NCBI GenBank assembly: GCA_964106915.2
Contig: OZ066914.1
DNA from: Podarcis gaigeae
Taxonomy: Eukaryota
Reading direction: 5' to 3' (one strand)
DNA length: 64,000 bases
Within the stretch, counting starts at the first letter, position 1. Every line of letters starts with the position of its first letter. Made by a program: the position numbers and the translations under genes. The notes under the pieces are model-generated. The model had not been told where the DNA came from, did not search any database, and saw only the letters and a list, made by a program, of their open reading frames with translations. This document shows, in pieces, positions 29,700 to 62,381 of the stretch.

Positions 29700-30158
29700 C
29701 TAAAGACAACCATGTCCAACCTCTCTCCAGAGCAAAGACTACAGAAGTTAGACTGCATCTGTGCAGATAGAGATAGCGCCACCAGCTGAAGCTGATGGAA
29801 GGCACTCTGCGCCACCAAGGCCACCTGAACAAAGGATCCAAGCTACGAGGGAGTGTAACCTCATCCAGAGCAGGCAATCTCCCATCCATCCATTTCAATT
29901 TCATTGTTCTGTATGGGACAATGACAATAAAGGTCTATCGTATCCAGTGCTAGGAACCACCTACTAACAGTGCCTCAGTCTCATCTGGGTTGAGCTTCAG
30001 TTTGTTGGCTCTCATCCAGTCCATTACCAACGCAAGACAGCAGTCCAGCACATCGACTGCCTTGCCTGCAGATGTAAAGGAGATGTAGAGTTGTGTGTCA
30101 TCAGCATATTGTTAACACCATGCTCCAAAACTTGGGATGACCCCAGCAGTGGTTTTAT
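29700..30158 (-). mobile_element. Older L2 LINE fragment (RT region)
   Basis: Minus strand encodes YADDTQLY near 30085-30108 and a SRLDxC-like motif near 29715-29730. Confidence 0.7.
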
Positions 30159-30159
30159 G

Positions 30160-31660
30160 TAGATGTGGTCTTGACTATGCTACCACTCAGTGGATTTGTA
30201 ACTGGCTGACTGACCGAACCCAAAGGGTGCTCATCAATGGTTCCTCTTCATCCTGGAGAAGAGTGACTAGTGGGGTGCCACAGGGTTCTGTCTTGGGCCC
30301 GGTCTTATTCAACATCTTTATCAACGACTTGGATGATAGACTCAAGGGCATCCTGATCAAATTTGCAGATGACACCAAACTGGGAGGGGTGGCTACCACC
30401 CCAGAGGATAGGATCACACTTCAAAACAACCTTGACAGATTAGAGAACTGGGCCAAAACAAACAAGATGAATTTTAACAGGGAGAAATGTAAAGTATTGC
30501 ACTTGGGGGGGGGGGGGAGGAGAGGCACAAATACAAGATGGGTGACACCTGGCTTGAGAGCAGTACATGTGAAAAGGATCTAGGAGTCTTGGTTGACCAC
30601 AAACTTGACATGAGCCAACAGTGTGACGCGGCAGCTAAAAAAGCCAATGCAATTCTGGGCTGCGTCAATAGGAGTATAGCATCTAGATCAAGGGATGTAA
30701 TAGTGCCACTGTATTCTGCTCTGGTCAGACCTCACCTGGAGTACTGTGCCCAGTTCTGGGCACCACAGTTCAAGAAGGACACTGACAAACTGGAACGTGT
30801 CCAGAGGAGGGCAACCAAAATGGTCAAAGGCCTGGAAATGATGCCATATGAGGAATGGCTAAGGGAGCTGGGCATGTTTAGCCTGGAGAAGAGGAGGTTA
30901 AGGGGTGATATGATAGCCATGTTCAAATATATAAAAGGATGTCACATAGAGGAGGGAGAAAGGTTGTTTTCTGCTGCTCCAGAGAAGCGGACACGGAGCA
31001 ATGGATCCAAACTACAAGAAAGAAGATTCCCCCTAAACATTAGTGTCAGGGAATTGCCATCAGAGCAAGAAACGGAGGCAGGGCTCCCAAGCGATGCCGG
31101 AGAGGGGACGAGCAGGGGGGAAGGATTTCAACGCAACACCCATAGAGCAGAGAGGGAGATGGAGGAATTGGTGACAGGGCTCCAAGACCCTTCCCCCGAA
31201 TCTAGTGGAGAGAGCGCTGGGACGCCCCTGCCTTCCCCTTACTTGCGTAGACGCGTTCCGCGCAGAGAACATAGGCGGAGACTCGGGGTCAAACAGCTTC
31301 TATGCTGGAAGAGATTCAAGAGACGCCCACTCTCGGATTCTGCAAGTGACTAACAGGTCACGGAGGGCGAGCTCCGACCCTAAGCATGGTTGGGCAAGCA
31401 AAATAACTGAACTGAAGTAAGGTTATGCACAAGTAACCCCTCACACTCATTACAATTAGGAAGAACTTCCTGACAGTAAGAGCTGTTCGACAGTGGAATT
31501 TGCTGCCAAGGAGTGTGGTGGAGTCTCCTTCTTTGGAGGTCTTTAAGCAGAGGCTTGACAACCATATGTCAGGAGTGCTCTGATGGTGCTTCCTGCTTGG
31601 CAGGGGGTTGGACTCGATGGCCCTTGTGGTCTCTTCCAACTCTATGATTCTATGATTCTA
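30160..31660 (+). mobile_element. 5'-truncated CR1 LINE, interrupted by a solo LTR
   Basis: RT motifs GVPQGSVLGP, KFADDTKLGG and LVRPHLEYC; frameshift at the poly-G near 30505; 3' end (TTCTATGA)n. Confidence 0.95.
31044..31454 (+). mobile_element. Young solo LTR (411 bp, probably Gypsy/Metaviridae) carrying an open reading frame
   Basis: TGTCA...TTACA termini; 5-bp TSD ATTAG (31039-31043 / 31455-31459) splits the CR1 sequence CTAAACATTAGGAAGAAC; CpG-rich. Confidence 0.9.
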
Positions 31661-58362: not shown

Positions 58363-59386
58363 GGCGCGGGGGAGGTAGACTTGTAGCAACACCTCCCTGT
58401 TTGGGTGTCGGAGCCCCCGCGTTCATTAAGGTGGGTGGCTGCGTGGGGAGTGGATGTCGCCTTGCTTCGTTCTGCGATGCGCCTTGACGGAGCAGCGATG
58501 CCAGACAGGCTGAAAGCCACAGACAGAGTTCCTTGCTGGCGCACCGCTGGCGGCTGGTGCCCGGCAGCACTTAAGCAGCTGTTTGGAGCATTTCCTGATG
58601 ATGCCCATGTCAGGGCAACAGCCGCCGCGGTAATCTGCGGATTTGTGGCTTTCCAGACGAAATTAGAGCATCGTTTTGGATCCGTATTGCAGCGGATTAG
58701 GACCGCCACCCGGATCCTCGCCTCCCCGCTATCTAATTAATAGCGCATAATAAAATAATAACGGCGCCCTGCATGGAAGAAGAGGAACTCCTGAATTGTA
58801 GGGCGAGCCTCGGCAGGTCTGCTCAGCACACACACAAATCCTCCTCGGAGTTGAAGGGGACTCGCTCCCCGGCGAGGGTGTCTTGCAGCCTTCCAGATCA
58901 GGGGGCCACGAGGAGCAGAGAGAGCTGGGTGGCGATGCAACCGGCAGGCAGGCAGATAGGCAGGCAGGCAGGCAAGAGGCAGGCAACCTGAGAGAGACAC
59001 TCCAGGGACTGCGGCCCCTGGCATCTCAGTGGCAATGCTGCCCGCCAGGGGCAGGGCCCTGGAGCCAGACCTGAGGCTCAACGATGGAGAGCGAACCTTT
59101 GAGTTTGTCCTCCTGTGCACCGCTGATGAGCAGAGCTAGGAGGCGAGATGTGTGCGGTGCGTTTGTGAGAGATTCCACTGGGGAAGGGAGCAGGTTGGGA
59201 GGGACGAAGAGCCAAGGAGACCTGTGAGGAGGTGCTTCTTTTTCTCCAGCAGCGGGGCGGCGGCGGGGGGGGGGGAGAGGGGCGAATGGGGAATCCTTGT
59301 GTGCCTGGGAAAGTGCAAGTCCACAGGCTAGGCTGGTGACCATTTGCTCTCTCCTCTTGCTCCCCGTTGCAGGAATGTAATCCACA

Positions 59387-59954
59387 ATGCTAGTCCTCAG
59401 GTTCCTCAATGTGGTCGCTCCTGCCTACTTCCTGTGCATCTCCTGTGTGACCTTCGTCCTCCAGCTCTTCCTCTTCATCCCCAGCATGTTCAAAGACCCT
59501 TCCGCCACCCCGCTCTTCTGCTCCTCCGCTTTGCTGCACGGCGCCCTCTTCCTCTTCCTCTCGGCCAACGCGCTGGGCAACTACATCCTGGTGATCCAGA
59601 ACACCCCCGAGGACCTGAGCAAGGGCCTGAACTGGGTCGGAGGAGCCGATGGGGTGGCCTCCGACTGGCCCGATGGGAGCTGCCCCCCTGGCTCGGCCTT
59701 ACCCAACACTCACTTCTGTAGACTGTGTGCCCGGGTCACCCAAAGGCATGACCACCACTGTTTCTTCACAGGGAACTGCATTGGGAGCAGGAACATGAGG
59801 AACTTCGTCATGTTCTGCCTCTATACTGCTTTGGCTTGCCTGGATTCCTTGGTGGCAGGGCTGGCTTACATTTCCACTGTGCTCTCCACCTCCTTTGCCA
59901 ACCCACTGGCATTCCTCACTCTCCTGCCTCAGTCCATCAGCCAGTTCTTCTCAG
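59387..59954 (+). CDS. ZDHHC22: Palmitoyltransferase ZDHHC22, first coding exon (189 codons + 1 nt; last exon not found in the window)
   Basis: MLVLRFLNVVAPAYFLCIS... with DHHC cysteine-rich domain CRLCARVTQRHDHHCFFTGNCIGSRN and transmembrane segments. Acceptor TCCCCGTTGCAG at 59372; donor TCAG|GTCAGT at 59954/59955. Confidence 0.96.
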
Positions 59955-62381
59955 GTCAGTGACTTCTCCTCTAGCAGAAGGGGTATCTGTGGCTCCCTTC
60001 CCTCTCCCCCTCTCTCTGCCAACCCTTCTTTACAAGCCTTCCTTTCCCACAACAGCTGTCCCTCCAGCATTGCCAGGAGCCCGGGGGAGGGGGCTGTCTG
60101 TGCCTATGTGGGTTTCCTATGTTTCTTCACCCATCTTTTGCTTTAATTGCTGCTTATTGGAATAGCCAGCAAATAAAAAAGCCGGGGTGCTGTGCAAAAG
60201 CCACCTTGATACACAAAGGTTGGGGCCTGCTTCAGGCTACCGTCCAATGCTGTCTATGTATAATTGAGTTGATTCCAAGGAAAGCACCCTGCAATGTCCT
60301 ATGGGTGACTCAGTGTGGACCAGCCCAAGGCTATTGTCTGAAAGGTTTTGTACATGTTGGAAGACGGTGGAAGGAGCATTTCATTCTTGTATTATGTGAC
60401 TGAGGGAAGTTAGTGTAGAGGCTTGCAAGAAAGGTTCCTTTTCCAGAGTTCTATTTTCTCAGAAACTCACTGGTTACACCTGGACTTTGGTTCCTCCTGA
60501 TCTGAACATCATGTCCCTTCCTGTGAAAAGGACAGGAACTCATTATGGAGAAAATTAATACAGTTAATAATTTAATATTTCATTTAGGCAGCAGCCCTAA
60601 TTAAGCCAGTCCTATTGAACCTTCAGATCAACATCACACATTAAAAACATGTCCAGCTTGCATTGAAAGCAAATGACTTTCCCCCAAAACACCCTAAGAA
60701 CTGTACTCGGTGAAGGGTATTAAGAACTGTAGCTCTGTTAGCAGTAAACCACAGTTCTTATGATTCTCTGTGGGACGTCCTAAATGGGCATTGGATGTGC
60801 TTTAAATGTGTGGTGTGGATCTGCCCTTATTAACATGCATAGGATTGCACTGCTAAGCTGCCACTCTAAACACACTTGCTAGGTGTAAGTCCCATTGCTG
60901 AATAAGCATGCATAGGATTGCACTGTCATTGTCTCCTAGTGGAGGTAGACAAAAAGCAGAATTGATGCGAGGCACCCTGCTACATCCCACTTGCAAGTGC
61001 TCTGCTGACTGAATTTGAAATGTGATTCAGATTCTGACCTGTCTGGCCAAGATCAAACAGGCTTCATCATCATGCTGTTTTTCTTTTTCTCCACACCTCC
61101 GTTTGTGCCCAGTTTCTGGTTTTCCCTCCTCTTATTTGTCAATTTACACCCCTACTGCTCTCGCTTCTGAAATTCAAGAACCATACAAAAGATCATTAAA
61201 ATGAGAAGCACACACACTAAAGCCAGCCCAATACATTTTGCTGCCTGAGGCATAATAGTAAACACCACCTCTCAAGTTAAGATGAACAGTACCCAAGGCC
61301 AGTCAAGTTATGCTGATTCCTGAAGCAGAAAATCTCACAAGTAACTTTTCTCTATCCTGGTAAAAAAAAAACACTTTAAATAACAAGTTGCTGCCTTTTT
61401 TTGACACCCAAGATCTGCTGCCTGAGGTAGCTGCCTCACTTTGCCTAATGGTAGGGCTGGGGTCATGGGCGCACACACATAGATGGAGTCAGTTCCGAAA
61501 GTGATTTTTCCCACCCAACAGGCTTGCTGTCTGAATGCATTGTGTTTCCAGAGTTTATAGACTGAACGACTTACAAGGAAGCGTTAATATCCCTTCCTGC
61601 TGCTAACATTGTACAACCAGGGAAGGATTGAGAAAAGGTCAGGGGTGTATATATTGGCTTTGAGATTATCCACGGGCTTGTTGACTCTAGTCTGTTCTTT
61701 ATTGTTTATAATGACTGAGGCTAAATGAACTCAGTTTGTTCCTTAGATAAAAGGATAAATTTGTATGGCTGATATGCACACAAACGCCAGTTTACTCAGA
61801 TGGTAGTGTGAAGGTAGATCTTCATTGCAATATTATTTTAAGGTGGTGTCTGAGAAGAGTGGGGTTGTTGTTGTTGTTGTTTTTTAAAAAAATAATGTTG
61901 GATCAATTTCTTAAGCTGACAGCTTGCCAAGTTCATTTTGATGCTTGGACTCTGCCCAGCTTTTATAAACTGGAAAGGGAGAAGAAGAGGAAAGGCCACT
62001 GCAGTCAGGTGCTTTGTTGCGATTCCTTGATTCCATCGCCTATTCCCTAGCAGTCCTCCCATGAGCTAAGGCATGAGTTCTAATGTGAGCTGCAAAATGG
62101 AAGAAAGGTGGGAATATATATGTAACAAATAAAATAAAACTAAATGGTGATAAAGAGTATCTCTCTTTGTTTTAGAAGTGCTGCCCCATGATAGTCCTGG
62201 TACAGGAAGCCCCTCCATGCATTCTCAATCTGAACAACCTACTTGCATGATTTATGGGGATGTGTTATTGCAAGGCATTGATGTATCACCACCAAGGGCT
62301 TAATAACATGAAGGGTGAATGAAGAGAGAAAAATTCTGCCATGAGCTACCATCTTCCCTTTCCCCTGTGGCGCTGTGCCCC

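Follow-up and report, generated by a model that had tools for sequence, protein, structure and literature searches.

A chromovirus pol frame that continues into the LTR, probably across all of U3, in the lizard Podarcis gaigeae

We find that the open reading frame of a solo LTR in the lizard Podarcis gaigeae continues the pol frame of a chromovirus. Pol reads through into the LTR, the arrangement occurs in six families and the last 42 codons are under purifying selection; the frame is a real, selected coding sequence and not a separate gene. We consider it probable that the frame encodes the C-terminal tail of Pol/integrase, reached through the polypurine tract (PPT) and extending across U3, and that this tail is a nuclear-import and chromatin-docking signal. 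The solo LTR lies in a window of 64,000 nucleotides (the whole stretch of DNA analysed, from contig OZ066914.1), and relatives were searched for in the window's own genome, Podarcis gaigeae GCA_964106915.2. The features of the LTR and its flanks are:

31039..31043, + strand: left target-site duplication (TSD), ATTAG (from the sequence)
31044..31454, + strand (sense): solo LTR of a Ty3/Gypsy chromovirus (family A), 411 bp, TGT...ACA, assigned by identity to the LTRs of paired elements
31455..31459, + strand: right TSD, ATTAG (from the sequence)
31045..31353, + strand: end of pol, the last 102 codons (integrase C-terminal tail) plus TAA at 31351-31353; in frame with integrase and chromodomain in 3 of 6 paired copies
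31045..31224, + strand: acidic linker of variable length, codons 1-60, 14 D/E and 5 K/R; predicted disordered
31225..31350, + strand: basic conserved end, codons 61-102, 14 K/R, from the gapless alignment of families A, B and C; shaped like a bipartite NLS (putative function)
31297-31308, + strand: LLCW motif inside the basic end
31159..31161, + strand: internal ATG (Met39), not conserved as a start (families B and D lack it, and 7 of 30 LTRs have it altered)
31044..31328, + strand: inferred U3, 285 nt, all coding, no TATA string; its end is set by the self-priming site
31329..31339, + strand: self-priming site, 11 nt, the putative RNA 5' end and start of R, within the last codons of the frame; its complement follows the 5' LTR
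31354..31454, + strand: rest of R plus U5, non-coding, 101 nt; no AATAAA, AATAAC at LTR position 359
30116..31660, + strand: host repeat, the 3' part of a CR1-like LINE split by the LTR (ends approximate)

The LTR is as an earlier note on this DNA had described it: a 411-bp TG...CA element between two ATTAG copies, open from 31045 to the TAA with the translation quoted there. The in-frame ATG at 31159 is codon 39 and would yield the 64 residues that the note had counted. The solo LTR is 97-98% identical to both LTRs of paired family-A elements. The open frame of a single LTR copy is weak evidence, and it is the family evidence that decides; among 5000 base shuffles of the LTR, a frame opening at base 2 and lasting 102 codons arose in 1.1%, and a frame of at least 102 codons in any register in 28%. 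The copy in the window is itself a neutral recombination remnant, whose frame is still open because the copy is young.

The host repeat is one that we take to be CR1 from its RT and 3'-tail motifs; a Pfam search of the LINE remnant at 30493-31044 gave no match. A remnant of its ORF2 happens to be in frame with the LTR, producing a 286-aa chimeric ORF at 30493-31353 that could be miscalled as a gene. This joint ORF was rejected as a real gene, since other LTR copies have unrelated flanks and the in-frame junction is therefore due to chance. Elsewhere in the window, near a GC-rich island at 57-60 kb, an ORF with DHHC (…HDHHCFFTGNCIG…) at 59381-59962 on the - strand resembles what we presume to be a ZDHHC palmitoyltransferase exon.

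A search of the genome with the LTR returned 1528 candidates, 40 of which were scored (95-100% identity), and six family-A LTR pairs 3.2-5.1 kb apart were fetched. LTRs paired at ~5.1 kb flank gag and PR-RT-RNaseH-IN-SH3-chromo, by Pfam and ORF order; the chromodomain is above the cut-off for PF00385 and also matches HP1/CBX5. The domains of the paired copies thus agree with the earlier view of a Gypsy-like element and identify it as a Ty3/Gypsy chromovirus. In full-length copies the order within pol is integrase, SH3, chromodomain, acidic linker, PPT and LTR frame. In three of the six pairs the integrase region, the PPT and the LTR up to its stop share a single open frame, of 471, 368 and 735 aa; the frame is broken near the PPT/LTR in the remaining three, and all six paired copies are broken somewhere in pol. 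The PPT precedes the + strand in 3' LTRs, so the LTR frame lies on the sense strand. A check of the family for stops and frameshifts came out in favour of the frame: 28 of the 30 best copies meet their first stop at codon 103, and of the other two one has an in-frame 6-nt deletion and one is frameshifted. In five of six pairs the two LTRs have 4-13 differences over 411 sites (the sixth has a gap), indicating that family A is young. There is no room for an env ORF after pol, whose end is inside the 3' LTR. As judged from its sequence, the element is a young env-less Ty3/Gypsy chromovirus, of the Tf1/Sushi type by its primer site.

The nearest named proteins are Podarcis muralis Gypsy polyproteins in UniRef, which have the same tail at 48-49% identity. 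The 102-aa tail had no match in Pfam or the ESM Atlas. AlphaFold with a 7-row alignment folded only the chromodomain; the tail has pLDDT mostly <50 and no secondary structure. At the other end of pol, in one copy (L031, 1307-1541), the gene starts in the -1 frame and overlaps the end of gag. The context there, read from the translation, is of the GGGAAAA/GGGAAAC type, consistent with ribosomal frameshifting as in Sushi/PEG10.

Families B-F came from a protein search and from a Pfam SH3 search, which scored 150 of its 3022 candidates and from which 30 were fetched. In pol DNA, families B, C and D share ~70-72% identity with A; E gave no alignment at the cut-off used. All of families A-F cross the PPT/LTR junction in the same register, T|GTC, and the residues coded by the LTR number 102 in A, 96 in B, 109 in C, 70-83 in D, 95 in E and 207-218 in F. 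The pol frame is open in all nine LTRs that were compared, and in each of them both other sense frames contain stops. The tail of each family ends with a basic stretch and then (L/A)xW, in the form LLCW, LACW, LLSW or ILNW; the same end is present in the database protein P0007. The earlier note had offered either a long integrase tail inside U3 or an accessory protein there. The tail part is borne out, with pol entering the frame through the PPT in family A (three of six pairs) and in B-F; the scattered accessory protein, discussed below, is not supported. Family X (L073, L080, L081), a more distant chromovirus in the same genome, has an intact aromatic cage in its chromodomain and a TATA-like box in the LTR. 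Its pol stops before the PPT in two readable copies, and it is an in-genome contrast to the clade with coding U3. Family B is very young: both B-type elements that were checked have LTR pairs that are 100% identical, and its copies, many of them sharing one long pol frame, are spread over all chromosomes (L040, L050, L059-L066 and rows of the SH3 search).

Selection on the tail was assessed by aligning the last 42 codons of families A, B and C without gaps from the stop and by permutations in which the same substitutions were scattered. Between A and C, differences at codon positions 1/2/3 are 6/4/16, with 14 synonymous codons against 4.8 expected (0 of 5000 permutations). Between A and B they are 18/10/25, with 14 synonymous against 6.0 expected (P 0.001), and between B and C 12 are synonymous against 6.0 expected (P 0.008). 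In shifted frames the signal is gone, with few synonymous changes and stops present. K/R swaps occur by multi-base changes, and BLOSUM scores are far above permutation. The same pressure is visible among individual LTR copies. The first 23 nt of the LTR are matched by 322 LTRs, of which the first 30 by position were fetched, representing 28 independent insertions of several subfamilies. They are 64-100% identical to the window copy, and 27 of 30 are open to the same end motif. Variants in 29 copies were scored against the window copy, with a neutral synonymous expectation of 0.29. The synonymous share is 51/103 for variants in at least four copies, 29/86 for those in 2-3 copies and 20/99 for singletons (Fisher P 1.6e-5, common variants versus singletons). 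Since common variants are enriched in synonymous changes and singletons are near neutral, the frame is under selection during transposition and decays neutrally once inserted. The codon-level constraint between subfamilies that the earlier note had proposed to look for is thus present, as a synonymous excess among families A, B and C and among the sampled LTRs.

The acidic first 60 codons are weakly constrained and variable in length. Their pairwise dN/dS is 0.2-0.76 from protein-guided alignments, which bias it downward, and it is a rough guide only because synonymous sites are saturated in many between-family pairs. Indel lengths in DNA-only alignments of close pairs are 6 and 15 for A versus C, 30 and 6 for D_L079 versus D1, and 1 and 2 for D_L079 versus D2; DNA-only alignments of distant families have gaps of all lengths, and any mod-3 signal in them is noise. 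The last 42 codons are under codon-level purifying selection, which is strongest on the basic motif ending in (L/A)xW.

The layout of the LTR points to where its RNA begins. The primer-binding site of family A is not that of a tRNA: it does not begin with TGG and pairs with the LTR instead. In four of six family-A elements, an 11-nt stretch that starts 2 nt past the 5' LTR is exactly complementary to LTR positions 286-296, a pairing on which the leader folds. An 11-nt complement was also found in families B (3/3), C (1/3) and D (1/2, the end of the other D LTR being uncertain), and a 10-nt one in F (2/2); both halves covary in B, C, D and F. Tf1 has such a self-priming layout, with the RNA 5' end as pairing partner, and the layout is also implicated in the Tf1/Sushi group, according to the available text of two papers (PMC4600332, PMC6317226). 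Since the partner is the RNA 5' end in Tf1-type self-priming and the halves covary here, transcription probably starts at window position 31329 (LTR position 286). Relative to this putative start, the frame spans the entire 285-nt U3 and ends 22 nt into R. Four contig sets, presumed to be of RNA, were compared with the 3' part of one element and contained short pieces of relatives only, in which starts and ends are unreadable.

Upstream of the PPT, comparison with HP1-alpha revealed that cage aromatics 1 and 3 of the chromodomain are replaced in families A-F; a chromodomain without those residues is type II by the definition given in the available text of PMC3059260. A tree was built from the integrase end, SH3 and chromodomain of 20 proteins (3 of the 23 planned rows, in which the anchor motif could not be located, were left out), among them database proteins of fish, frog and amphisbaenian and no named reference elements; it is midpoint-rooted and carries a long-branch warning. 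On one side of a branch with 100/100 support are the 13 long-tail rows, which comprise families A-F, Podarcis proteins and one ENA protein. All 13 are without cage aromatics 1 and 3, family F also without the W; the 7 other rows (fish, frog, amphisbaenian, two unnamed and family X) keep cage aromatics 1 and 3. The fish sequences, available as proteins only, run just ~20 residues beyond a PPT-like GGG[DTSN]V motif and end in SP(E/T/K)(F/Y). It therefore looks as if a short read-through is old in vertebrate chromoviruses and the lizard clade later stretched it over U3. P0135 from Rhineura floridana (XP_061449381.1), annotated 'cec-1-like', resembles a chromovirus integrase end with intact cage and appears to have ~85 acidic-then-basic residues past the PPT-like motif, as known from the protein alone. 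It is possibly an independent LTR read-through, and because it appears to combine an intact cage with a long tail, cage loss may not be required for the latter. A profile search of 1.84 billion representatives gave 2446 matches at E <=0.001. Among the best 150, which were considered, only P0001 and P0007 match across the full chromodomain and tail; the others cover the chromodomain and stop no later than within the acidic linker, which is no evidence of absence beyond lacertids.

The window's family has no sign of targeting. None of 34 family-A insertions (40 hits, with pairs merged) is within 50 kb of a chromosome end, none of 5133 LTR starts of families A-C has a telomere-repeat flank in pattern counts, and no tRNA gene was found at 41 loci of families A-E. 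TSDs varied among sampled LTRs, and copies of families A and B are dispersed along chromosomes. Family F, with an LTR of ~760 bp and all three cage aromatics lost, is strongly enriched in TTAGGG arrays. On chromosome-scale contigs (3 of 150 copies on small contigs being dropped), 12 of its 147 pol copies are within 50 kb of a chromosome end, at 9 ends, against 0.2 expected; the count for putative family B, assigned mostly by equal bit score, is 1 of 121. There are 60 exact telomere-flanked LTR starts among ~1000 of family F, compared with 0 of 5133 in A-C. These come from 64 matches, 4 of them inexact; 2 of the 60 are probably an assembly duplicate (a contig repeating C24 coordinates), and the ~1000 starts were counted with a slightly longer pattern. 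Ten telomere-flanked starts were fetched: nine stay open as far as the family-F end motif, and the last one has an F LTR end. Examples are found at the starts of C23 (L099), C28 (L100, L115) and C2 (L104) and the ends of C8 (L101, L113) and C3 (L102), in addition to L118-L127; one solo LTR (L101) has a clean CTAAC duplication. About 94% of family-F LTR starts are non-telomeric. The LTR of this family starts with telomere-like TGTCAGGGTTTCAGG, and its enrichment may come from the tail, from these first bases, or from retention or copying at chromosome ends. One chromosome, C32 (29.5 Mb), holds 8 of 34 family-A insertions (0.7 expected) and 28 of 147 in family F (2.9 expected), and 1 of 121 in family B, which is not enriched. 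This pattern is as expected of a non-recombining W chromosome, which C32 may be.

The tail could work as follows. With transcription starting at 31329, the tail would be read only from the 3' LTR copy of the full-length RNA, as the end of integrase, with at most ~100 nt of RNA following it, and would be absent from the transcript that a solo LTR itself produces. The acidic part is predicted to be disordered and may be a spacer that presents the basic end. By analogy, the basic end and (L/A)xW would form a bipartite NLS with an embedded hydrophobic protein-binding motif. The tail may have taken over from a chromodomain that is without two cage residues, and a short 3' UTR is a possible second benefit of the frame. 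A bolder version is that the clade swapped its methyl-lysine-reading chromodomain for a U3-coded targeting module, convergent with the CR motif of plant CRM elements, and that different tail versions send families to different chromatin, family F preferring TTAGGG telomere arrays. We regard this version as doubtful.

The frame might instead be kept mainly to place the stop near the RNA 3' end, giving a short 3' UTR that escapes nonsense-mediated decay, with the peptide playing a minor part. In keeping with this idea, the stop follows the U3/R boundary in five families at any U3 length: its distance to the self-priming site is 22 nt in A, B and C, -1 in D and 18 in F, while U3 ranges from 215 to 613 nt among them, and the acidic part is free in length and sequence. 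However, the amino acids of the last 42 codons are conserved, and in family X of the same genome the stop precedes the PPT in the two readable copies. We judge stop placement unlikely as the main reason, although it can coexist with a role of the peptide. Conservation at the DNA level could in principle mimic coding constraint through promoter elements ~20-30 nt upstream of the start. The LLCW codons lie 21-32 nt upstream of the putative start, a core-promoter-like place in an LTR with no TATA string, and TGG has no synonymous alternative. The third-position excess, however, is confined to the pol frame, the families show synonymous changes at the Leu and Cys codons, and A and D are not alike in the distance to the start. 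As the whole explanation this is very improbable; some double use of the LLCW stretch as coding sequence and promoter is likely.

A chance open frame in a purine-rich young LTR would be helped by the ease with which shuffles of this LTR yield frames of such length and by the common ancestry of close copies. It is incompatible with the shared register and is refuted by pol continuity in paired copies and by the synonymous excess across families ~70% identical in pol DNA, leaving it a negligible chance. The other option of the earlier note was an accessory protein scattered by every solo LTR. It would be a separate 64-aa peptide from the ATG at 31159, comparable to nef, sag or Rev and expressed by many solo LTRs. 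That ATG has a good context, lies upstream of the basic motif, is present in 23 of 30 sampled A-C LTRs (altered in 7), and could be covered by host read-through transcripts. It is also 170 nt upstream of the putative start, so that a solo LTR's own RNA would lack it, and neither families B and D nor the database protein P0002 have a homologous ATG. A scattered peptide is unlikely on both counts. The frame is moreover open and constrained upstream of the ATG and across the PPT, and singleton variants look neutral. We give this part of the note's proposal hardly any weight. The preferred reading remains an integrase tail that pol reaches through the PPT.

LTRs are usually handled as non-coding in repeat annotation and dating. 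In the lizard clade, selection at the protein level acts on 59-83% of an LTR that has to act as promoter and primer as well. Gene predictors may call spurious genes on these LTRs because several thousand copies carry the frame. The clade is a vertebrate parallel to the plant CRM arrangement, and its tails of 70-218 residues, in dispersed and telomere-enriched families, form a natural series for relating the integrase tail to target choice. Should the pattern of family F reflect true targeting, the telomere-repeat inserters would gain an LTR element; the only such inserter found in the literature covered was the non-LTR SART1.

Coding sequence overlapping U3 and read from the 3' LTR copy is familiar from lentiviral nef and MMTV sag. 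Those are separate genes with spliced or separate RNAs, whereas the lizard frame is joined to pol and lacks a conserved start codon. With Tf1/Sushi chromoviruses the lizard clade has in common PR-RT-RH-IN-chromo, no env found, TG...CA LTRs, a 5-bp TSD and, going by the available text of PMC6317226 and PMC4600332, a primer-binding site that pairs with the LTR and not with a tRNA. It differs from them in an LTR-coded part of 70-218 residues over the whole inferred U3, in an extra ~90-aa acidic linker before the PPT, in the loss of cage residues 1 and 3, and in the basic end with (L/A)xW. The available text of PMC3601003 on Sushi LTR motifs does not mention coding, and full-length chromoviruses are present in reptiles according to that of PMC3670739. 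In plant CRM group A, the CR targeting motif of integrase (CHDCR) is coded in the 3' LTR, as stated in the available text of PMC3059260 and PMC3605345; an integrase motif coded within the LTR is the shared feature. Group A itself has no true chromodomain, uses tRNA-Met priming and is centromeric. The lizard element has a type II-like chromodomain upstream of the PPT, is likely self-priming and belongs to a dispersed family, and no Pfam match ties its tail to any family. It is not a member of CRM group A, having a real chromodomain and no tRNA-Met primer-binding site.

In yeast Ty1 integrase, residues that bind AC40 lie in the linker of a bipartite NLS, according to the available text of PMC7459421. 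The end of Ty1 integrase so resembles the lizard tail, for which we likewise predict a bipartite NLS enclosing a short targeting motif. Ty1 is copia-type, its tail is not LTR-coded, no sequence likeness to it was noticed, and no tRNA-gene association was found in the lizard families (0 of 41 loci). The nuclear-import and docking role that we propose for the tail is supported by the CRM group A and Ty1 precedents by analogy only. The literature covered contained nothing on this lizard clade; older chromovirus surveys in subscription journals and Repbase were outside its scope, and an earlier description is possible. Pol entering the 3' LTR is already known in plant CRM, and fish relatives appear to go ~20 codons in. 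New here is a lizard clade that combines a fully coding U3 with a chromodomain missing cage residues.
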